From positions 1 through 56,751 of the forward strand of contig JAGOAT010000001.1 of the NCBI GenBank assembly GCA_017983775.1: a stretch of DNA of 56,751 bases. Reading direction: 5' to 3'. Below are positions 4,058-45,000 of the stretch, in pieces (the first letter of the stretch is position 1; each line of letters begins with the position of its first letter). The DNA is from Candidatus Saccharimonadota bacterium. GTDB taxonomy: Bacteria > Patescibacteriota > Saccharimonadia > JAGOAT01. The notes under the pieces are model-generated. The model did no database searches. It saw only the letters and a list, made by a program, of their open reading frames with translations, and was not told where the DNA came from. The translations under genes and the position numbers were made by a program.

Positions 4058-4319
4058 TGATATCATCAACCCAAGAATCACCCCTGGCTTTATTGAGAGC
4101 TTCATCCGATAAACCTTTAAGACAAGCTGGGATATTCTTCGTGATACGAGATCTTGTTTTTGCAAAAGACTTGATATCAGTCCCAGCGTTTAGAATGATA
4201 TTGTTATTCTCATCAAGAGCTAGGGTTAGTTTTTGACCAGATTTGAGGTTTAATGCTTTACGCAGAGGAGAGAGTATAGTAATCGTGCCTTTACTGGTCA
4301 AAGTAGTCTTATAATTCAT
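4050..4319 (-). CDS. vapB: AbrB/SpoVT-family antitoxin (VapB-like)
   Basis: 89-aa ORF. TLTSKGTITILSPLRKALNLKSGQKL is a swapped-hairpin AbrB-type motif. It lies directly upstream of the PIN gene and overlaps it. Confidence 0.7.
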   Translation of the reverse strand: MNYKTTLTSKGTITILSPLRKALNLKSGQKLTLALDENNNIILNAGTDIKSFAKTRSRITKNIPACLKGLSDEALNKARGDSWVDDIND

Positions 4320-6346: not shown

Positions 6347-6940
6347 CTATTTAACTTGTACAATAGCCCGATCGGATCTAGCAGAGTTAGGTTTCCAGAT
6401 CATATACTGATGACCTTCCTCGATTGGTACCTCAAAAACTACTTGACCACTTGCAGTACCTCCACTGACAAGGTCTCCATAACCTAAAGCATTGTCAGCA
6501 AGTAATGATTTATCATCTAATACTTGCCCCTGAGCGGTCTGGATACGAAAGTTAGCCTGACTATAAGACACAACCTTATCACTAGTATTTTCTAATACTA
6601 CATCAGCAACAACATAGGTCTTGCCATCACTAGTTGTAAAGAATTGATCGAGACTTGTAGTATAGTTAACCTTACTTACAGTCATCTTCACCCCATCAAC
6701 TGTCCCAGCCTCACCAACTATTATCTCTACATCTTTTTCTTGCTTATCTACCCTATCCGCAAATCGATACTCTTTCGTCTGACTAGAGCTTTCAGATGAG
6801 CTATTTGATTGACCACCATTACTATTGTTTGACTTACTTCCCCCTGAGCTACCTATTATTGCCAAAACTACTAGCACAACGATTACCGTTAGTACTTTAT
6901 GTCGAGCAAACCAGCTCTTTTTCTTATTTGATTCAGCCAT
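6347..6940 (-). CDS. membrane-anchored DUF4352-like protein
   Basis: N-terminal TM helix, a Ser/Gly/Asn-rich linker, then a beta-rich domain ...VVADVVLENTSDKVVSYSQANFRIQ.... An AGGAGG RBS precedes the ATG. Confidence 0.6.
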   Translation of the reverse strand: MAESNKKKSWFARHKVLTVIVVLVVLAIIGSSGGSKSNNSNGGQSNSSSESSSQTKEYRFADRVDKQEKDVEIIVGEAGTVDGVKMTVSKVNYTTSLDQFFTTSDGKTYVVADVVLENTSDKVVSYSQANFRIQTAQGQVLDDKSLLADNALGYGDLVSGGTASGQVVFEVPIEEGHQYMIWKPNSARSDRAIVQVK

Positions 6941-6985
6941 TTTATGACCTCCTATTAGTTAGTTTATTAATCGGAGGCGATAACC

Positions 6986-7106
6986 AAAAAGGACAGCCTC
7001 GCTATGTTGTCTAGACTAATAGAAGAGATTGAACCCTACTATTTGCGTGGCTGCCCATTTCTTAGTTCAATCCACGCAAGAGGCGTTTTCTTCTATTAAT
7101 CTAGAC
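6986..7106 (-). promoter_or_regulatory. structured 5' leader A (riboswitch-like; long P1, H-type pseudoknot, U-tract)
   Basis: P1 pairs 7009-7026 with 7089-7106 (17 of 18 bp). P2 pairs 7027-7034 with 7065-7072. P3 pairs 7043-7050 with 7072-7079 and is interleaved with P2. The loop GAAATGGGCAG (minus strand) is conserved. A T-run follows on the minus strand. It is a paralogue of the element at 25326-25443. Confidence 0.45.
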
Positions 7107-7284
7107 TCAATCATCTTACCATCTAGTTCAAATAATCTCAAAATCTTACAAATTTGAAGGTTATAAATCAGGTATCTTTATTGAAAAATTCAATACACCT
7201 ATTACCCTTGACATCGGGAGTATAATAAGGTTAAGAGATAAATAAAGATAGAATATTACTAACTAATATGATAGGAGGGATGCT

Positions 7285-7848
7285 ATGGCAAAGAATATTG
7301 CTGAGCAAGCTGGCTATGATCTGAGTGGGATCTTGATGGCCAGAGGAGTATTTACAATTATTTTTGGGGTTATTGCCCTAGTCTGGCCAGGTATGACCTT
7401 GGTCACTCTAGCAATAATCACTGCAATCTGGCTGTTTGTCAGCGGTATTACTGGCGCATTATCCAGTATATTCATGCGAGACAATCACCAATACTGGTTC
7501 CTGAGACTAATCCTCTCACTAATCCAGTTTGGAGTAGGGGCATATCTGGTGCAACGACCTGGAATATCCATCCTAACCTTTATGCTAGCGATTGGACTGA
7601 GTTTCATCGTCGAAGGTGTGATCGAACTAGCCATCTCCTTCACAGATTCAGGCATGGATGGTGGTAGTAGAATGTTAGGAGTACTACTTGGTCTACTAAC
7701 AATGGCTGGAGGAATCATGGTCTGGAGATATCCAGATACTGGTTCACTAGCTTTCATTTGGGTTCTCGGTCTAGTAGCTCTAGTCGGTGGTACTGCCACC
7801 CTCTGGAAAGCTATCGATATGCGTCGAGATCTCAAAAAAGACGAATAA
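7285..7848 (+). CDS. HdeD/DUF308 family membrane protein
   Basis: 187 aa with six hydrophobic helices. RGVFTIIFGVIALVWPG is a typical DUF308 repeat. Confidence 0.65.
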   Translation: MAKNIAEQAGYDLSGILMARGVFTIIFGVIALVWPGMTLVTLAIITAIWLFVSGITGALSSIFMRDNHQYWFLRLILSLIQFGVGAYLVQRPGISILTFMLAIGLSFIVEGVIELAISFTDSGMDGGSRMLGVLLGLLTMAGGIMVWRYPDTGSLAFIWVLGLVALVGGTATLWKAIDMRRDLKKDE

Positions 7849-7878: not shown

Positions 7879-7905
7879 AACCCGGCTTATAGAGTCGGGT
7901 TTTTT
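7879..7905. terminator. bidirectional intrinsic terminator between convergent genes
   Basis: aacccggc-ttataga-gtcgggtt is followed by TTTTT and preceded by AAAAA. Confidence 0.55.
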
Positions 7906-8245
7906 ATTGAATAACTGCCCCACCTGCAGACTGCAAATCATCAATTCCACCAAGATTTACGACATCAGTATATCCTTCACGCTCTAGGATCTTTTTAGCA
8001 ATCCCTGCCCTGCCCCCACTCCGGCAGTAGAGATAGGTCTTCTGATTTTTGGCTAGCCTGGGCAAGTCCCCATTAGTCAATCTGGCTAAATCCCAATTGA
8101 TTGCTCCCGTAACATAGCCAGTCCTGAACTCTTCAGGAGTCCTGACATCGATCAATGTCACCTGGCCTTGCCTAGCCTCCTCAACTGCTTGCTTAATCTT
8201 GGCTAAATTACTATCTTTATTGGCCAAAAACCACGTATCTGGCAT
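7904..8245 (-). CDS. rhodanese-like sulfurtransferase domain protein
   Basis: LIDVRTPEEF..G...GAIN and the active-site loop CRSGGRAG. Confidence 0.8.
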   Translation of the reverse strand: MPDTWFLANKDSNLAKIKQAVEEARQGQVTLIDVRTPEEFRTGYVTGAINWDLARLTNGDLPRLAKNQKTYLYCRSGGRAGIAKKILEREGYTDVVNLGGIDDLQSAGGAVIQ

Positions 8246-8277
8246 TCTACGATAAATAATCCATATTAAGCCAAATA

Positions 8278-10893
8278 TTAGATAGACTGAAACTTAAATT
8301 GTCCCGACTGATACTCGATGCCAATCCTGTCCCCTTCTTTAATCTGACCATCAATAATCTCGAGAGCTAAGAGATCTAGAATTTCGGACTGAATTAGCCG
8401 CTTGAGTGGTCTAGCCCCAAAGGCTGGATCATATCCAGCAATAGCTAGTTGTTGCTGAACGCTACCATCAAACTCCAGATGAATATCTCTAGCTTCAGCG
8501 ATTTGCTTAGCAACTTTGTCTAGCTGAACTTTGACAATCTCAGTCATATGCTTCTTGTCTATCCGCTCAAAGATCACGATATCATCAAGTCGATTAAGGA
8601 ACTCTGGCCTAAATTGTCGTTTGGCAATATCAATCACCGCTTCACGCATTTTTTCAAAATCCTTGCCATCCCAATCCTGGATATAACTTGAACCAAGGTT
8701 GCTGGTCATGATGATAATCGTATTGGTAAAATTGACCACCCTACCCTGTCCATCGGTTAACCTTCCGTCATCTAATACTTGCAATAAGATATTGAAAATA
8801 TCTGGACTAGCTTTCTCGATCTCATCAAAAAGAATAATCTGATATGGTCTCCTGCGAACTGCCTCTGTCAACTGCCCACCTTGCTCATAGCCAACATATC
8901 CAGGAGGTGAACCAATCAGTCTAGCTACCGAGTGAGACTCCATGTATTCACTCATATCGATCCGAATCATCGCTCGATCATCATCAAAAAGTTCACTAGC
9001 TAGAGCCTTGGCTAGCTCTGTCTTACCCACACCAGTCGGTCCCATGAAGAGAAATGAACCTATTGGGCGATTCTGATCACCAATACCTGCTCTAGACCTT
9101 CTAACGGCACTAGAAACAGCCTTGACTGCCAACTCTTGACCTATCACACGCTTGGCAATCACCGATTCTAGATTGACCAGCTTATCAGATTCACTCTGAA
9201 GTAGCTTATTGACTGGTATACCTGTCCAACGCGCCACAACTTTGGCAATATCTTCACCTGTAACCTCATCCCTCAATAAGCGTTGGCTATCAGGTATCTG
9301 GGCTAGCTGAGACTGAAGCTGCTTGATCTTGTCTTCAGATTTTGGGATCTTATCAAATCGGATCTCACTCGCTCCGGCCAGATCTCCTCCCCTTTCGGCT
9401 CGTTCTTCATCGACCCTTAACCCCTCAATCTCTTCGGATATCTGATTGATCTGATCGATCAAGTCCTTTTCCTTCCTCCAGTGCCCTTCAAGTACTTTAC
9501 TCTTCTCTCCTAGATCAGCTATCTCTTGATTAATCTCAGATAAGCGAGCCTTGGCACTGGCTGATTTGTCCTTTTTGACTGAAGCTTTCTCAATGCTGAG
9601 CTGAGTAATCTTGCGCTTTTGTCGATCGAGTTCGGTAGGCATCGAATCAATCTCAATCTTGATACTACTCGTAGCTTCATCTATGAGATCAATGGCCTTG
9701 TCGGGCAAGAATCTATCCGGTATATACCTTGCAGATAATGTAGCAGCAGAAACAATTGCATCATCAGTGATTCTGACACCATGATGTACTTCGTACTTAT
9801 CCTGTATACCTCGCAAAATCGCGATAGTATCTTCCTGGCTTGGCTCCCCAACATATACTGGCTGAAATCGTCTCTCAAGTGCACTGTCTTTCTCTACATA
9901 CTGACGATACTCGTTGAGGGTTGTGGCACCAATCATATGAAGCTTTCCCCTGGCAAGTAATGGCTTGAGCATATTACCTGCATCTACTGCACCATCAGCC
10001 TTACCAGCTCCGACAATAGTATGTAATTCATCGACAAAAAGAATGATCTGACCATCACTCTTCTCGACCTCTTTAAGGACAGCCTTAAGCCTTTCCTCAA
10101 ATTCTCCACGATATTTTGCTCCGGCAAGTAAGCTAGATATTTCCAGCGAAATTATTCGTTTATCCCTGAGCGAACTTGGCACATCCCCAGAAATAATCCT
10201 CTGAGCTAATCCTTCGACAATAGCTGTCTTGCCAACGCCTGGCTCACCCAATAACACTGGATTATTCTTAGACCTACGAGACAGCACTTGCATACATCTT
10301 CTGATTTCCTCATCTCGGCCGATTACTGGGTCTAATTGACCAGATCGAGCAAGTTCGGTGATATCTTGACCAAATTTCTCTAGAGTATTAATAGTGCTTT
10401 CTGGTGAATCATTTTCCACTTTCTCTCCTCCTCTCAATTTATCTATTAGATCAATTAATTGATCCGGATCTAGCTCTTTCAGTAAATCAATTCTAGCTTG
10501 CTTGACTACTCCAACCAAAAGATGCTCTGTCGATAGGTGACTATCTCCCAGCCTATTTCGTATTTGATCTGCTTTGCCCAACAAATCAACCATACTCTGA
10601 TCTGCTTTCAAATTCATCAGATCGATTGCCTGAGTCAAACTGGGCAATTGTTCAAGCTGGAAAAGCAGGCTGGTACTTAATCCGATTTGATCTACCTCTA
10701 GCTGTTCAAGAATCAAGCAAAAAATCGTATCGGTTTGTAGACTCAGAGCCCAGATCAAATGATCAGCACTCAGGCTAGGATTCTTGAGCTCCAAAGCCTT
10801 GGAACTCGCTACCTCGAACCCCTCTCGGACTTTCTGTGTCATCATCTCAGGCTTCATATTACTTAGTATTATCCCACCAACCCCTTTTTGCAA
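8278..10893 (-). CDS. clpB: ATP-dependent chaperone ClpB
   Basis: Two AAA+ modules (GEPGVGKT and GPTGVGKT Walker A motifs), a long coiled-coil middle domain and a Clp N domain. The true start is probably ATG at 10845 or 10842 (MMTQKV). Confidence 0.95.
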
Positions 10894-15573: not shown

Positions 15574-15999
15574 ATGAAAATCATTGCCAAAAACAAGAGA
15601 GGGGTCTATGACTACCAAATTTTGGATAAATGGCAGGCTGGAATTGTCTTAAGAGGGTTTGAGATCAAGGCAATTCGAGCTGGTAAGGTAAATATCTCTA
15701 CTAGCTACTGCAGTCTAAAAAATCATGAAATCTGGCTGGTTAATGCTACCATAGGACACAACTCTGATTCTGATCAATCAATCATTGCTCGCCACAAGCT
15801 ACTCCTCAAGCATACTGAAATTGATAAGATTGCAAAATTACTTGAGCAACAAGGTACTAGCCTAATTCCTTTGGCTATAGGGCTAAACCGACATCTTGCA
15901 AAGCTTGAAATTGCAATCGGTAAAGGCCTAAAGAAGCACGACAAAAGACAAGTAATCAAAGCCCGCGAGGCTCAGCGAGAGATTTCTCACAAAATCTAG
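15574..15999 (+). CDS. smpB: SsrA-binding protein SmpB
   Basis: IAKNKR..YDY.I....AGIVL.G.EIK..R.GKVN......C......E.WL and a basic C-terminal tail. Confidence 0.9.
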   Translation: MKIIAKNKRGVYDYQILDKWQAGIVLRGFEIKAIRAGKVNISTSYCSLKNHEIWLVNATIGHNSDSDQSIIARHKLLLKHTEIDKIAKLLEQQGTSLIPLAIGLNRHLAKLEIAIGKGLKKHDKRQVIKAREAQREISHKI

Positions 16000-16114
16000 T
16001 ACTACACAATTTTTGCACAATATCTGTCTAAGAATTTTGAGGTGCTATATCTGTTAATGAACTACTAATGTGTTCTTTATATAAAGTTATCCACAGATTT
16101 GTCACTTCGAAGTG

Positions 16115-16300
16115 TTGACAGCAAAAGCCTTATTAGCATAAGATAGATGCAGTGCTGAGCACGTTAGTTGATCCAAAACACAAACAAACAGCCAGAGGTT
16201 GGCTCCAGTAAGCGACCTTTGGCAAACCAGACAAAAGTGAGGGTAAACAAAAAAGCAAAAATAAATGCCCCTAAGACCGCCAGTAGGCGGTCTTTTTTTT
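16115..16300 (+). ncRNA. candidate small RNA unit (promoter-like TTGACA-16-CATAAG through to a strong terminator), function unknown
   Basis: TTGACA at 16115-16120 and a -10-like CATAAG at 16137-16142. There is no ORF of useful length. A terminator lies at 16274-16300. Confidence 0.3.
16274..16300 (+). terminator. intrinsic terminator
   Basis: agaccgcc-agta-ggcggtct followed by T8. Confidence 0.75.
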
Positions 16301-16556
16301 GCTCGGACTATCTTTGCTTCTTATGACAATATTATCCTTGGCAAAGGGGGTATTTTTGAGTCCTGTTCCCTAAGTAATTCTTTGACTCAAGGGTGCTTAA
16401 TTTGATATTGGAATAACCTTTTTATCAAGAACCCCCACTGTGGAATTAAGGTTATGAAATGAAGGGACTATTCTAGCTCAGATTAACTATTATCACCCTT
16501 AAATACTGTGGTTGCTGGCTTGTTGGCTAACCACACCACCACCATCATCAATCTGA

Positions 16557-18362
16557 CTACCCAATCCCAAACTCCTCAAGCTGCTGATGAGCCTGATACG
16601 AACTATCACTCTGGAGCTTGAGCAGTCTGGCATAAATCCCATCTGGATGTTTTGCCAGCTGCTGGGGTGAACCAGATTCCACCACTCTACCCTGTTCAAT
16701 CCCATAAATCTTATCGACCCTAGCTATGGTGCTCAGTCTATGGGCAATGATGACTGTAGTCCGATTCTTCATCAGATTGTTCAGAGCTGTTTGCACCTCC
16801 CCTTCAGCAATACTATCAAGGGATGAGGTTGCTTCATCGAGAATCAAGATCGGAGCATCCTTGAGAATTGCTCTAGCAATCGCAATCCTCTGCTTCTGTC
16901 CTCCGCTCAACTTAACTCCTCTCTCCCCGACTTGGGTATCATATCCATCGCTAAGTTTTTCTATGAATTGATCGGCATTAGCAAGCTTGGCTGCCCGCTT
17001 AACCTGCTTGAGGCTAGCCTTGGTTCCGTAGCTAATATTCTGATAAATGCTTGTAGAGAACATCCAAGGATCCTGGAAAACAATAGCTATCTGAGATCTC
17101 AAGTATTGCAAATCATATTCCCTAATATCTTGGCCATTGATCTTAATTTCACCCTGATAATCTGAATACAGACCGAGTAAAAGATTGGTAATAGTCGTCT
17201 TTCCTTCCCCACTCCTCCCAACCAAAGCAACCTTTTGCCCTGGCTCTACTGCCAAATTGATATCGCTGAGAACTTGATTACCCTGCTTGTAATAAAAACT
17301 AATATGCTCAAAGCTAACTCGAGCTTGCTTCATCTTATCAATAGATTTTGGCTTATGAGTACTCGGCTTGGTATCCTTAGTGGCCAAAGTCTCGATCTCT
17401 TGATCAATCAAGTCAAAGTATTCATTTGTCCCAGTTCTAGCTCTCTGAACACTGTCGACAATAAAAGATATGGCAAACAGTGGAAACTTCGCCTGGGCAA
17501 TCAATTGTATTATCAAGGCGAACTCACCAATATTGATTTTTCCTTTGTAGGCCATCCAGACAACATAGAGATTGACCAGTCCGAGTAAGATATTGAGAAT
17601 AAATTTTCGATAAAAATCATATTGATGCCAACTATTTGATTGCTTGAGGTGGATACTCTCGACATCCTTACGATTCTGATCAAATATTTGCTTCTCAAAT
17701 ACTTCACTGGTATAAGACTTGACCAGTCTCATCTGGGAAGCCACCTGCCCTAATCTACCAAATGCAGTATCTTGTAATTGATTGATTTGCTTTTGAAACT
17801 TCATCCAGCGCTTTGATGATTGCCTAGTAAGGTAGATGTAAATTGGGAACAGTAGGACCAGGATTATCCCTACTGGACCCAGGTAGTAACTAGTAGCAAT
17901 AATCACAAAAATTGTTGTCAGGATAGTACTAATCAAATTGTTGGCCATATTCTGGAAAAAACTCGTCACCGAGGACATCCCCCTATGCAGATATGAGATT
18001 AGTTGACCACTCTCCTGGTCATCAAAAAACCTCTGAGGCAGGTACAGTAACCTATCCAAATATCTTGATGTCAGAATGGTATCTAATCTGACTGCCAATC
18101 TATCCCCCAATCTACCACCAACAAACTGTAAGAAGGTCTGAAATAGATCTGCAGTAAAGATGATTGCTACCAACATAGCTAGAAATATAAAATCATGACG
18201 ATCTGGATTGCCCACTACTTCTACCAGTTGATTAACGATTGAACGAATCGTAAATGGATAAACGAGATTCAGTGAGGCAACCAGCAGATTGATAATTGCC
18301 AGCTTGATATAGAAATCCTTTAAGACAGCCGTGTGTCTAATGAGTTTAATTATTTCTTTCAT
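16557..18362 (-). CDS. ABC exporter, fused permease/ATPase (MsbA-like type I exporter)
   Basis: Six N-terminal TM helices, Walker A GRSGEGKTT, signature LSGGQKQRIAIARA and Walker B ILILDEATS. Confidence 0.9.
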   Translation of the reverse strand: MKEIIKLIRHTAVLKDFYIKLAIINLLVASLNLVYPFTIRSIVNQLVEVVGNPDRHDFIFLAMLVAIIFTADLFQTFLQFVGGRLGDRLAVRLDTILTSRYLDRLLYLPQRFFDDQESGQLISYLHRGMSSVTSFFQNMANNLISTILTTIFVIIATSYYLGPVGIILVLLFPIYIYLTRQSSKRWMKFQKQINQLQDTAFGRLGQVASQMRLVKSYTSEVFEKQIFDQNRKDVESIHLKQSNSWHQYDFYRKFILNILLGLVNLYVVWMAYKGKINIGEFALIIQLIAQAKFPLFAISFIVDSVQRARTGTNEYFDLIDQEIETLATKDTKPSTHKPKSIDKMKQARVSFEHISFYYKQGNQVLSDINLAVEPGQKVALVGRSGEGKTTITNLLLGLYSDYQGEIKINGQDIREYDLQYLRSQIAIVFQDPWMFSTSIYQNISYGTKASLKQVKRAAKLANADQFIEKLSDGYDTQVGERGVKLSGGQKQRIAIARAILKDAPILILDEATSSLDSIAEGEVQTALNNLMKNRTTVIIAHRLSTIARVDKIYGIEQGRVVESGSPQQLAKHPDGIYARLLKLQSDSSYQAHQQLEEFGIG

Positions 18363-24975: not shown

Positions 24976-25299
24976 CTACTCCTTATTATGAATTAATTTT
25001 TGATCCATTCTGATGATTTGCGAAATCTGTTGATATTCCTCAAAATCTTGACTAACCTGATAGCAAACTTTCTTTCCTTCTCTGATGTGTTTAATCAGCC
25101 CTGAATTTTCAAGGATCTTTAACTGCTGAGAAACTGCTGGAATACTAACATTCAATTGGCTAGCTAGCTCACTAACACAGATGCCTGGATAGATGGTTAA
25201 TAAGCTATAAATTTGATATCTAGATTGATCACCAAGTGCTGAAAATATCTCTCTTATATTAGTTACTCCTGAATTAGTCATATCACCATCATAATCCAA
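24976..25299 (-). CDS. ArsR/SmtB family transcriptional regulator
   Basis: ALGDQSRYQIYSLL....CVSELA..L.VS.PAVSQQLKILENSGLI is a winged-HTH signature. Confidence 0.8.
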   Translation of the reverse strand: MDYDGDMTNSGVTNIREIFSALGDQSRYQIYSLLTIYPGICVSELASQLNVSIPAVSQQLKILENSGLIKHIREGKKVCYQVSQDFEEYQQISQIIRMDQKLIHNKE

Positions 25300-25325
25300 A
25301 AATACCTTTAAGTAAATACTTAAAC

Positions 25326-25443
25326 AAAAAGGACAACCACTGGTTGTCTATTCCAGCAGAAGGTTTGTATTCTGCCTAAGTGGTTGCCCATTTCATATAC
25401 AAACCACTTGAGCTAGAAGCTCCATATACTGGAATAGACAACC
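25326..25443 (-). promoter_or_regulatory. structured 5' leader B (riboswitch-like; P1, pseudoknot, intrinsic attenuator)
   Basis: P1 pairs 25342-25356 with 25429-25443 (15/15 bp). P2 pairs 25362-25370 with 25397-25405. P3 pairs 25378-25383 with 25404-25409. On the minus strand the terminator GACAACC-agt-GGTTGTC plus T5 (25326-25348) competes with the P1 3' arm. A promoter-like TTGATT-17-TATATT lies at 25446-25474 (minus strand). Confidence 0.5.
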
Positions 25444-25502
25444 CTAATATATATCATCTGAGTACTAAAATCAAACGCTTTCAAATGTGTTAGAATGCTT
25501 AT

Positions 25503-42047: not shown

Positions 42048-45000
42048 TTAGCGTAATCCTGGATCAAAACCCACTGATGGATAAGTAAGCTGGCTACGGA
42101 TTAGCTCATAAAATGTATCCTGATCCCATTGCTTTTTATCGGATTGTTTCTTGGTGTCTAGATACTCTGATTTTAGTTTTAAATAACCTCGCAATGCTAT
42201 ATTGAGAGCAGCTTGCAAATCTGCATCTGCAATATGTAGACAATCCAAGTATGGACATACAAAGATAGCCGAGTTGGCATTTTGATTGACCCAATCCTTC
42301 GCATCAAGTTCGCTAAAAATCCTATGATAATCCTTATTCTTACCAATAGCGAATTGCATTGCTTGACTATGTATAGGTGGCCTCATAAAAGCATAGATTA
42401 GCTTAAGTTTATTGATCTCCTGACCGCTCACCTGACCAAAATTACCCCCCGTATATGCTAGCAGTTTATTGTTGTCACCAGTGTCAATAGTAGCTAATTC
42501 AGAAAAATCCTCTAGTATTTCAAGCTGATACTGCTCCTTATCTTTGATGTCATATTTGTACCAACGTTTACATTTACCACAAGTCTGACTAGTGCCAGAA
42601 GCAGATACCTCGATTCCTGGCCTTCTTGTCCGTCCCTTTGCAGCTTTACCCCAGTAATGCTCCAGCTTGGCATTGTCCGCACTATTTTGCCCAAAGACAG
42701 ATCCGACTTTGAGTGATTTATAGACTTTGACAATTCGATTTCCACCAGTCTCAAAGGCATTAATATTAAACTCATAGCTAATTCGTGCCTGATACTTCAA
42801 GGCCAAAGCTTCTACTCTAGCTTGATAGCTACTGGCCAATGACTTGCGCAACTCTGCTATATGGGTAGATTGACTAGAAAAAGTTGCAAATCTTTGACGT
42901 TTTTTGAGCTGAGTTACCTGACCGGAGAGAGCCTGGTGTTGATTGTCACGAATAAATCCCTGATCTACAATGACAACATTACCTTCATCACCTACTTCAA
43001 TAACCAACCATGCTAGACCTTTCTCCCCTACATCTACACCAACTATCCGATTGGGGATTTGTTGCTTCTCTAGCCCAAATGCACCCTTTTTGGATTCTTT
43101 GGCCAGGATATTGAAAGGAATACTTGCAAACACCCTCTCCGAACCCTGAATGTTTTCTATATGAAGTCTAGCCTGATCATCCCATCTAATCTTCTTGCGA
43201 GTTTCCGCAATGCTAAAGCCTCCCATAAATGATAATGGATTATGTTTATATTTTGGTTTCTTGATCAACCACCATAAGAATTGTTTCTGATATCTACTAC
43301 CTCCTATACGGTACAGTGCAGAATTCTTTGCTGGCTTATAAGGCTTAGCAACGGGCAAACTACCTGATTTCGGTTTTGGAAATTGTTTGAGATCGTCAAA
43401 GCCACCCTTAAGCTCAGCACCCATCAATCCACCATGTTGCTCTATGTAATATTTTGTACTAGTCACTGGATCTTTTGGATCAAATACTAGCTTGATTTGT
43501 GCTCCATTGACTTCCTGAATAGCAGATCTCTCTATGTATTCTCTCTTTGAGACCAAACTCAACAACCCCTTGAGCTCAGCTAGCAACATTGTCTGCAAGA
43601 AGGTATTTAGGCTGTGATTATTGAGCCTATAGTCCCTAAGAGCTAGGTATATGTCTTGCAGTTTATTAATAGGCTCTACATTGTCTACCTCAAACTGATC
43701 AACCTTACTAATCAATATACTAGATAATATCTTGATCAATTCAATATAGTCTATTGTAGAATCTAGTTGTCTAATGACCGTTACTGGATTCCTAATCTCC
43801 TCTAGGGTCTCTTCTAATATCTCAATTATTGGGAACCTGCTAGCTGGGGTATCTTGATAGCTGATCAATTCCCTCTTTTGCCTAGCAAAAGGTGAATTGT
43901 AAAACACCTTATCTTCGATATTGAGGGTTTCCATATTAAGTCTCAGCTCAACAAGCGCCAATATCTTGAGAGATTTGTGTGATCTCAGCGATACTGCCCA
44001 TTTCCTTAGCCTCTCCAAATCTTTTGCTTGCAAATAAGCATCTGATTGGTATTTGATAATAGGACTAATAGCACTAAGAAGCTTGGTGAATTGACTGATC
44101 AAACCTTGATAATTATCTTTATAATTTACGACTTTGATAAACTTCTCTCGCGCTGACTCTCCAAGCAAGTTTGGTATCCTAGGAAGTTGCTTGGTGAGAT
44201 CTCTAAAATCAGTCTTGAAATCCAAACCCAACCCTGAGTTGGCCTGTAAATGGGCATTTAGGTCTCTCCTAATCCTAGGTAGTAACAATTGAGCACCTTC
44301 TGTCAATAATGGATCAAGGTACTGATCTGCGTGATAGGTATCTAGCAAAGACTGATAGATATTGATCAGATCATTAATACCTATCCCCAAATCAGGGTCT
44401 TGATCAACCAACTTATCTTGATACTTCGTCAGGTTATCTAGGTGTTTGCTGGCTACAGTGACTATCTCCTCTTCTTGCCTCAGCTTATTACTATAAAATG
44501 AACTCATCTTACTAGCGAAATCAACCCGATAGTCACCCCAACTATTAGCTAGCTTGGGCTGGCCAATATTTTTGGCCAACTCAGCTAGTCTTAGCAATCT
44601 AGCTCGCACTATTTCCCTTTCCCGATCTGTGTATTTGAGATACACACTCATGTCATCCAGGTACTGATTGATCACTTCAGCCCCTTGAGAAGCCAGATCA
44701 TTAAAGACTTGATTGAGGAAATTACTGAAACCACTTGCACTATTGGCTAACCCGATCAACTCCTCGATATCTTTTGCATTTAGACGATCTGTCTTGTCTA
44801 CCAAGTCCAAGTGTAACCTCCGAATAATCTGTTCAAACAGCTCAGTCTTACTATCCGCCTCCAGTTCTTCCCAGCTAGGCAAAATCAAAAATGAGATGGA
44901 TTTTCTGGGACTAACGGGTAGTTGTGGGTCTTTGATGCCAAATAATTCTAGCTTGAATAAGGTCTTTTGATTATCCCCAGTAATCTTATTGATTTGCTTG

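Follow-up and report, generated by a model that had tools for sequence, protein, structure and literature searches.

Folded leader RNAs of an undescribed family in Saccharibacteria and their phages, with mutually exclusive helices that may gate transcription termination

Our results indicate that two regions of a Candidatus Saccharimonadota genome carry genuine members of a family of folded leader RNAs that has not been described before and that occurs in Saccharibacteria and in their phages. The window, by which we mean the whole stretch of DNA that was analysed, comprises 56,751 nucleotides (nt; positions 1 to 56,751 of contig JAGOAT010000001.1, assembly GCA_017983775.1), and both elements, copy A (6986-7141) and copy B (25326-25474), are read from its minus strand. 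The reading that we favour, somewhat above even chances, is that the element is a cis-acting attenuator leader of Saccharibacteria, phages and islands, in which mutually exclusive helices would gate both transcription termination and the access of the ribosome.

Copy A precedes the gene for a DUF4352 protein. The promoter that a preliminary description of this DNA had proposed for it was found again by sequence inspection (TTGAGA-17-TAAGAT, 7141..7113, minus strand), and the parts of the leader that follow are given below. Note that S2 and S1 are the helices which that description called P2 and P3, respectively, and that P2 is here a separate small hairpin; LT is a long-range helix and T is the local terminator hairpin.

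7113..7141, minus strand: predicted sigma-70-type promoter of copy A, TTGAGA, 17 nt, TAAGAT, with TG before the -10 box
7106-7090 / 7025-7009, minus strand: helix P1, 17 of 17 positions paired, -22.5 kcal/mol; GUCUA opens the helix, which encloses the inner helices
7074..7086, minus strand: P2 hairpin, ACGC-CUCUU-GCGU
7077-7072 / 7050-7045, minus strand: helix S1, GCGUGG/CCACGC, -13.2 kcal/mol with its flanks; the closer that holds the 3' part of seg3
7071-7065 / 7034-7028, minus strand: helix S2, AUUGAAC/GUUCAAU, with a 30-nt loop that carries seg3
7061-7051, minus strand: loop GAAAUGGGCAG
7045..7061, minus strand: seg3, GAAAUGGGCAGCCACGC (purine tract, variable base, GGGCA, S1 3' arm), the 5' strand of LT
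7002-6986, minus strand: tail UAGACAAC..GGCUGUCC plus U5 (TAGACA..TGTCC, then the U-run)
6986..7002, minus strand: seg4 with the U-run, GCGAGGCUGUCC UUUUU, the 3' strand of LT; 16/19 pairs, -22.3 kcal/mol
6948..6978, minus strand: downstream platform, where GCCUCC (6978-6973) may pair either with GAGGC of seg4 or with GGAGG of the Shine-Dalgarno sequence (SD)
6952-6948, minus strand: SD GGAGG; the start codon is the ATG at 6940

Six nt separate the end of the -10 box from GUCUA. S1 is interleaved with S2, and it excludes P2, because the 3' arm of P2 overlaps the 5' arm of S1. The local terminator hairpin of copy A, formed by seg4 with GACAAC (7011-7006), is weak (-2.6 kcal/mol), as had been noticed at the outset. 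The copy A fold has a z-score of -5.3, and none of 200 shuffled sequences folded equally well.

Copy B gave a similar value (z = -5.5; 0/200 shuffles equally good). The preliminary claim that it shares the architecture of copy A holds from 25443 to 25326: the S1 and S2 sequences have changed and are still complementary, and P1 is entirely different.

25446..25474, minus strand: predicted promoter of copy B, TTGATT, 17 nt, TATATT
25443-25429 / 25356-25342, minus strand: P1, with the core GUCUAUUCCAG/CUGGAAUAGAC and a species-specific extension GGUU/AACC
25422-25410, minus strand: P2 hairpin, GAGCU-UCU-AGCUC
25409-25404 / 25383-25378, minus strand: S1, AAGUGG/CCACUU
25403-25397 / 25370-25364, minus strand: S2, UUUGUAU/AUACAAA
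25394-25379, minus strand: seg3, GAAAUGGGCAACCACU
25326..25348, minus strand: terminator hairpin T, GACAACC-AGU-GGUUGUC (7-bp stem), then C and U5; -8.5 kcal/mol
25341-25331, minus strand: seg4, AGUGGUUGUCC, which also pairs with seg3 as LT (-20 kcal/mol)

A scan of the whole window with the 4227 models of Rfam 15 at gathering threshold gave no match, at E<=10 copies A and B had chance-level matches only (microRNA and small nucleolar RNA families among them), and the motif in 13 related loci matched nothing in Rfam either. The RNA class thus stays unrecognised, as first described. No paper was found in the literature that describes such an RNA in Saccharibacteria or beside DUF4352, and a BLAST search of the element against annotated phage records found no match.

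Relatives do exist. A strict DNA pattern run on GTDB species genomes found one true homologue, the orthologue of copy B in a Saccharibacteria/Nomurabacteria metagenome-assembled genome (locus L001); a second match, inside a Tannerellaceae gene, was rejected as chance. Homologues of the DUF4352 protein led to the motif upstream of the gene in six loci (L009, L011, L012, L038, L039 and L041). Homologues of the ArsR protein led no further than the same species, L001 and a single high-GC contig that is unrelated and lacks the motif, and a metagenome scan with the DUF4352 alignment gave 25 loci, none with the motif. Finally, a covariance model (R2) was built from the leaders found first, and it confirmed matches of three pattern scans of IMG/VR: 12 more elements, distributed over 11 viral contigs (L048-L053 and L056-L061; two in L049), where they precede genes for DUF4352 proteins, DNA methylases and small membrane proteins. 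The matches L054, L055 and L062 were discarded as terminator-only chance matches. In the window, covariance-model searches returned copies A and B and no third copy; a partial match at 43990-44004 is coding sequence and was rejected. The leader set therefore amounts to 21 sequences, of which 19 differ from one another in the key strands, and the further homologues with covariation for which the preliminary description had called are present, in a lineage of the candidate phyla radiation (CPR), the Saccharibacteria. Each of the 21 has the orientation of a gene whose start lies 18-53 nt beyond the U-run, and covariance-model scores fall from about 110 bits to about 21 bits on the reverse strand.

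The members are built to one plan. In all 21 the -10 box ends 5-7 nt before GUCUA, and the P1 base GUCUA/UAGAC is invariant in 20; the remaining one (L049b) has the compensatory pair GUCCA/UGGAC. S2 is present in 21/21, with 7-13 bp and a sequence that is free to vary, and its loop of 23-32 nt holds seg3, that is, a purine tract, one variable base and GGGCA. Directly 3' of P1 comes hairpin T, whose 3' strand GGYUGUCC is seg4, followed by one variable base and the U-run. P1, S2, the LT strands and the terminator are the only universal parts of the family, and the smallest members amount to about 100 nt of P1, S2 and T.

Covariation of P1, S1 and S2 was measured on a structural alignment of nine distinct leaders from about four lineages, which was fitted by hand to the structure. 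On it 94% of the cells are paired, compared with 81% after shuffling (0/500) and 35-39% when the partners are slid, and 18 pairs have changed on both sides. The compensatory changes that the preliminary description saw between copies A and B extend in this way to their relatives, with 17-18 pairs changed on both sides. The element is then a conserved, structured leader that lies upstream of a gene and covaries, as riboswitch-type RNAs do.

The second line of evidence is LT. The conserved GAAAUGGGCARCC segment (seg3) is complementary to the terminator loop, to its 3' arm and to the U-run, and the resulting helix is available in 21/21 leaders; it pairs 14-18 of its 19 positions at -20 to -28 kcal/mol, which makes it as strong as P1. 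Over the 19 distinct combinations 85% of the LT cells are paired, compared with 76% for permuted partners (0/5000); in the variable columns the values are 76% and 59% (0/5000), and both sides change at 7 positions. Position 6 is G:C, A:U or C:G, and positions 8-12 also vary on both sides. On the nine-leader alignment LT reaches 92% paired, against 82% shuffled and 36-45% slid. The purine tract faces the U-run, as in a terminator, and LT abuts the U-run in 21/21, even where two bases separate T from it. The base after GGG/UCC gives U.U in 9 combinations, copy A among them; where the first tail base is not U, an extra LT pair abuts the U-run (U:A in 5, C:G in 2, A:U in 2, G.U in 1). The conserved loop of the preliminary description is thus not a free loop of the kind that binds a ligand: it owes its conservation to being a helix strand, one side of the 14-18 pairs that LT forms with the 3' tail and the U-run.

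Since the non-Watson-Crick cells of the LT core are nearly all G.U, an RNA of the minus (leader) strand is indicated. This bears on the idea that the element works as DNA, being an operator palindrome or a recombination site, or as a leader-peptide attenuator translated from the AUG in AAUGGGCA. T is indeed a DNA palindrome, some copies adjoin serine recombinase genes, and the reading frame from that AUG runs for 15 codons in copy A and for 23 in copy B. However, the helix mismatches are almost all G.U and not A.C, the model scores of the reverse strand are low, and the AUG has become ACG in two leaders (L039 and L049b), where a G in the tail compensates, and is missing in L057, L058 and L059. 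We find either version barely credible and have dropped both, the DNA element on account of the G.U bias and the strand asymmetry, the leader peptide on account of the ACG variants and the unconserved AUG.

LT competes with several other helices, which is what an expression platform of mutually exclusive helices requires (S1 or a self-hairpin, LT, T, and seg4 with a downstream segment, seg5). T, a G+C-rich stem followed by the U-run, has the form of an intrinsic terminator. It is worth -8.5 to -14.4 kcal/mol in 16/21 leaders, covaries (GACAACC/GGUUGUC, GACACC/GGUGUC, GACAGCC/GGCUGUC, GGACGCC/GGUGUCC) and overlaps P1 at the final 3 bp of that helix. Weak versions are confined to the 5 leaders of types A and A', copy A of the window included, and these retain LT and S1. 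S1, which contests with LT the 3' half of seg3, is found in 13/21 leaders at -8 to -14 kcal/mol and covaries with both competitors. The remaining 8 lack S1 and P2; six of these use instead a self-hairpin such as AAAUGG-GCAG-CCAUUU or an internal decoy (UGUCC), at -5 to -7 kcal/mol, and L059 has neither S1 nor a self-hairpin or decoy. The H-type pseudoknot of the preliminary description thus fares unevenly: S1 and S2 are interleaved and covary in copies A and B and in 13/21 leaders, but the pseudoknot is not the core of the family, S1 being absent from 8/21. In most S1-type leaders P2 overlaps the S1 5' arm, which gives a further alternative fold, and P2 covaries too (ACGCC/GGCGU, ACGCA/UGCGU, GAGCU/AGCUC, GGGC/GCCC). 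Further 3', at least 10 members have a seg5 that matches seg4 as its complement and is often a copy of the seg3 core. A-type seg5 contains CCUCC, which faces the SD; in L061, L058 and L048 seg5 locks the SD in a strong hairpin, and in L009, L011, L039, L041 and L038 the seg4:seg5 hairpin has 7-9 bp.

The helices, their covariation and their mutual exclusivity are features of the sequences themselves; from them we infer which state terminates, and that something shifts the balance between the states. Transcription would start at the base of P1, which carries S2, and the large S2 loop would present seg3. For seg4 there would be three possible partners: its local 5' arm (as T), seg3 (as LT) or, in many members, seg5, which otherwise would mask the ribosome-binding site. 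Seg3 would be shut by S1, in a pseudoknot with S2, or elsewhere by the self-hairpin. With seg3 open, LT would form and termination would be efficient, and the SD of any read-through mRNA would stay masked by the free seg5, a tight OFF state. With seg3 shut, the weaker T alone would compete and would also have to open the last 3 bp of P1, so that partial read-through is expected; seg4 could then pair with seg5 and free the SD, which would be the ON state. In work by Yarnell and Roberts from 1999, release at a terminator reportedly required no more than that the 3' arm pair with a strand offered in trans, and LT should therefore be termination-competent.

Several points weigh against this account. 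If T and LT both terminate, the ON state of members with a strong T would need leaky termination. Reversed roles, in which LT would be an antiterminator and would nucleate on the T loop before T closes, are compatible with the upstream part of the leader. LT crosses P1 and S2 and would hence be a pseudoknot, and that it fits beside a P1 of 14-18 bp has been argued on paper: by that reasoning P1, S2 and LT could lie next to one another in a bundle, S2 being folded back. The downstream platform differs between members, and in the short ones the SD has a possible partner in seg4 and the U-run. Moreover, the nine-sequence alignment is hand-fitted and samples few lineages. We weighed LT as an antiterminator of T seriously and dropped it as the main model, because it would yield mRNAs with a masked SD (L061, L058 and the A type) and because LT, not T, abuts the U-run.

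As for what shifts the balance, we rate a metabolite below a protein, a factor of the phage or the host, or control by kinetics alone; this is the weakest part of our account. In its most far-reaching form, a scaffolded upstream loop would clamp the loop, 3' arm and U-run of the terminator under the control of an effector, either a new ligand or a phage or host factor that reports infection or lysogeny, and this would be a new principle of attenuation, carried by an RNA family restricted to Saccharibacteria and their phages; we put this forward tentatively, as a possibility that we would not bet on. If it is true, the clamp would control DUF4352 genes of a superinfection-exclusion-like kind, together with restriction-modification systems and small membrane proteins, and if in addition the effector is a new ligand, this would be the first riboswitch class specific to the CPR.

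The genes that follow the leader are relevant to the choice of effector. They are listed here with the number of leaders that precede them. Note that the numbers sum to 22, since the near-identical L048 and L051 are one of the 21 sequences and both are in the DUF4352 tally.

DUF4352 protein: 11 sequences (10 distinct)
N6_N4 DNA methylases: 2, one of them followed by a probable endonuclease
membrane protein family of 53-56 amino acids (aa): 3
other small proteins: 4
operon of arsR, glutaredoxin and FMN reductase: 2 (copy B and L001)

In 19/21 leaders no separate promoter was visible by eye in the gap of 18-53 nt before the gene, these loci not having been scanned for promoters, and the SD lies 10-45 nt after the U-run. 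Outside the B type the gap offers neither space nor a visible signal for a second promoter, so that the gene would depend on read-through. The attenuator placement that the preliminary description had suggested is therefore supported, as far as the sequences allow: a structured, promoter-proximal leader ends in a U-run, and 19/21 downstream genes appear to have no promoter of their own.

A riboswitch for a small molecule or an ion would also occupy this place. Its aptamer would be made of P1, S1 and S2, or of P1, S2 and the self-hairpin, and the ligand would either shut seg3 (ON) or stabilise LT (OFF). The RNA is complex, conserved and promoter-proximal and has a platform of exclusive helices, and GUCUA/UAGAC and GGGCA/UGUCC, a G.U pair among them, stay constant while other parts of the helices vary; no known class is matched, so that the class would be a new one. 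But no unpaired core is common to all members, as a conserved aptamer core would demand, and the closer is swapped (S1, self-hairpin, decoy, none in L059). Minimal members consist of about 100 nt of P1, S2 and T, and alternative base pairing accounts for every invariant stretch. Nor is the gene set coherent with one ligand: the downstream genes share no common pathway, and the arsR operon has a promoter of its own. A metabolite riboswitch is less likely because of the missing unpaired core, the invariants explained by pairing and the mixed gene set, and we rate the riboswitch as unlikely. The metal or redox ligands proposed in the preliminary description are not supported; that proposal rests on the operon of copy B, and the genes of the family are DUF4352 genes, methylases of restriction-modification systems and small membrane proteins.

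The operon 3' of copy B encodes an ArsR-type regulator, a glutaredoxin and an FMN reductase, and it carries a second promoter.

25281..25316, minus strand: predicted second promoter 3' of copy B, TTTACT, 17 nt, TATGAT; 6 nt lie between its end and the ATG (25281) of the arsR-type gene

The orthologous locus L001 has the same layout (about 7407-7455, minus strand; TTTACT-17-TATAAT-CAAAAT-ATG). Because the -10 box is 6 nt from the arsR-type ATG, a leaderless mRNA is predicted, independent of the copy B RNA. The arsR-type gene would then start at the ATG at 25281 (101 aa), rather than at a TTG at 25299. The operon thus lies 3' of copy B but has its own promoter, set for a leaderless mRNA. Since such an mRNA is predicted and the arrangement is kept in L001, copy B may function for the most part as a short RNA of its own.

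Extended to the whole family, this becomes the idea that the terminated RNA of about 100-135 nt is the main product, a stable, compact and pseudoknotted trans-acting small RNA (sRNA) made of P1, S2 and LT with its 3' U-tail on the purine tract, and that downstream expression is incidental read-through. Such an RNA might titrate a protein, or its seg3 and seg4 might pair with the seg5 and seg6 copies of sibling mRNAs. Every unit has its own consensus promoter and terminator, and the copy B type is followed by the separate promoter for a leaderless arsR mRNA that L001 keeps. The LT core is identical between copies of one genome, so that cross-pairing is possible, and LT would bury the 3' end. 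Set against this, 19/21 downstream genes have no visible promoter and have an SD 10-45 nt after the U-run, the element always adjoins a co-oriented gene, and the seg5 and anti-SD modules are wired to seg4 in cis. For the family as a whole we therefore hold the sRNA explanation to be rather improbable.

The genomic setting is largely that of mobile elements. Several of the IMG/VR contigs are real phage genomes, with open reading frames (ORFs) for portal, capsid, tape-measure and terminase-like proteins, and their leaders precede isolated cargo genes, sometimes opposite to the structural module. This would suit a constitutive damper or insulator of phage 'moron' genes, a leaky terminator cassette with redundant partners for the 3' arm and without regulated switching, particularly as T would already make a good terminator on its own in most of the leaders. 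Three or four exclusive helices kept by compensatory change are, however, hard to explain without switching, and a damper of this kind seems to us quite improbable.

Other contigs are islands with a large serine recombinase beside a tRNA gene (L049, 1-1719 and 2149-4933; L050, 6450-8720), and in L011 the recombinase is beside a transfer-messenger RNA gene (15644-17565). In L049 two leaders in a row precede a 55-aa membrane protein, a RAMA-domain methylase and then a 306-aa ORF, probably a restriction enzyme. On viral contig L052 (3965-4726) a leader (4181-4312) and a 90-aa membrane ORF lie between two tRNA genes.

The 53-56 aa proteins (L049, 2287-2454; L050, about 6431-6261, minus strand; L057, about 685-846) share ..REQKGHS.., one transmembrane stretch and a C-terminal NHYWH(A/L). 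The family has no Pfam match, and on its three contigs the leaders differ widely in sequence. From its sequence it could be a toxin or an exclusion-type peptide.

In L011, L012, L039 and L041 the DUF4352 gene is followed by a MgsA_C-domain ORF and a tyrosine integrase (Phage_integrase; e.g. L011, 10701-12175), after which comes variable cargo, such as recombinases or, in L041, a type III restriction-modification system. The DUF4352 gene may accordingly mark the edge of an integrated element. DUF4352 is a domain of the mycobacterial phage-resistance protein Mpr (PMC12596739, PMC9262609). More distant DUF4352 loci (L013-L030 and L043-L047) are without the leader and have instead a divergent gene of the XRE type, with a helix-turn-helix domain, and a palindromic operator.

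L043, 9725-9949: example of an XRE-type region
L046, 1785-2051: second example; the long palindrome is of the kind AAACAGATAGTT..AACTATCTGTTT

The RNA leader and a protein repressor thus seem to be interchangeable controls of the DUF4352 gene, and this swap suggests that the leader does the same job, keeping the gene off until some state is reached.

Around copy A the order ClpB, rhodanese, DUF308, leader, DUF4352 is shared between the window (7904-10893, minus strand) and L009 (5850-8774; GCA_020428505.1, Candidatus Saccharibacteria), and this agrees with the taxonomic assignment of the window. The AT-rich spacer between the copy A promoter and the DUF308 gene (7167-7260, minus strand) has a weak Rfam match to the eukaryotic DPB element (POLB stem-loop II), which we took as chance (score 26 bits, gathering score 40, E 0.05).

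The genomes of Patescibacteria (CPR) are tiny and encode few known regulators, and our literature search found no described regulatory RNA that is specific to the lineage. A review calls explicitly for riboswitch-type parts in genetic tools for Saccharibacteria (PMC11665869), and the leader is a possible natural control part for these tools, which are now in development. The family is common to Saccharibacteria chromosomes, phages and islands and precedes defence-type and cargo genes, and it gives a handle on how these epibionts and their phages control them.

The leader is a new RNA family of a known general kind, with a structure that is well supported and from which we infer the direction of the switch and the effector. 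In the ON-switch terminator platforms of the pbuE adenine, ZTP/pfl and fluoride/crcB riboswitches, the shared strand is the terminator 5' arm and the aptamer core is conserved. The likeness is considerable, since these too are promoter-proximal, combine a P1 with a pseudoknot, have a terminator that shares nucleotides with the sensor and use exclusive helices to decide termination. Here, in contrast, the partner of the terminator loop, 3' arm and U-run is a loop that lies upstream of them, an arrangement which to our knowledge is unusual; the closer is unconserved, Rfam gives no match, and the gene set implies no ligand.

The trp-type attenuators (1:2, 2:3 and 3:4) resemble the leader in having a chain of segments with two global registers, here P2a : S1a : seg3 : seg4 : seg5 : SD region. 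They differ from it in that the leader has no leader peptide and sets the chain inside a P1/S2 scaffold, so that the terminator helix is a pseudoknot. The ribonucleic antiterminator (RAT)/terminator overlaps of BglG, SacY and LicT and the put sites of HK022 share with it an invariant helix (the P1 base) that overlaps the terminator 5' arm by 3-5 nt, and a phage setting after promoters. Sequence and shape are not similar, however, and no candidate binding protein is linked to the leader in these loci; RAT uses internal loops, whereas P1 is a long regular helix without them. With hok-type type I toxins and the countertranscript attenuation of plasmids pT181 and pIP501, the leader has in common that genes of mobile elements are kept tightly off and that long-range pairing masks the SD or induces the terminator. 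Here the partners lie within one transcript, no antisense RNA gene was found, and the cargo also includes 190-aa DUF4352 proteins and methylases.

Finally, the HMP-PP riboswitch (thiS motif) is described as an aptamer embedded in a terminator (PMC6478431). The two are alike in that the sensing structure is merged into the intrinsic terminator and does not lie upstream of it. The thiS motif is a small hairpin associated with thiamin genes, whereas the leader is an RNA of 100-140 nt that combines a P1/S2 scaffold with a long-range helix and precedes the cargo of phages and islands.

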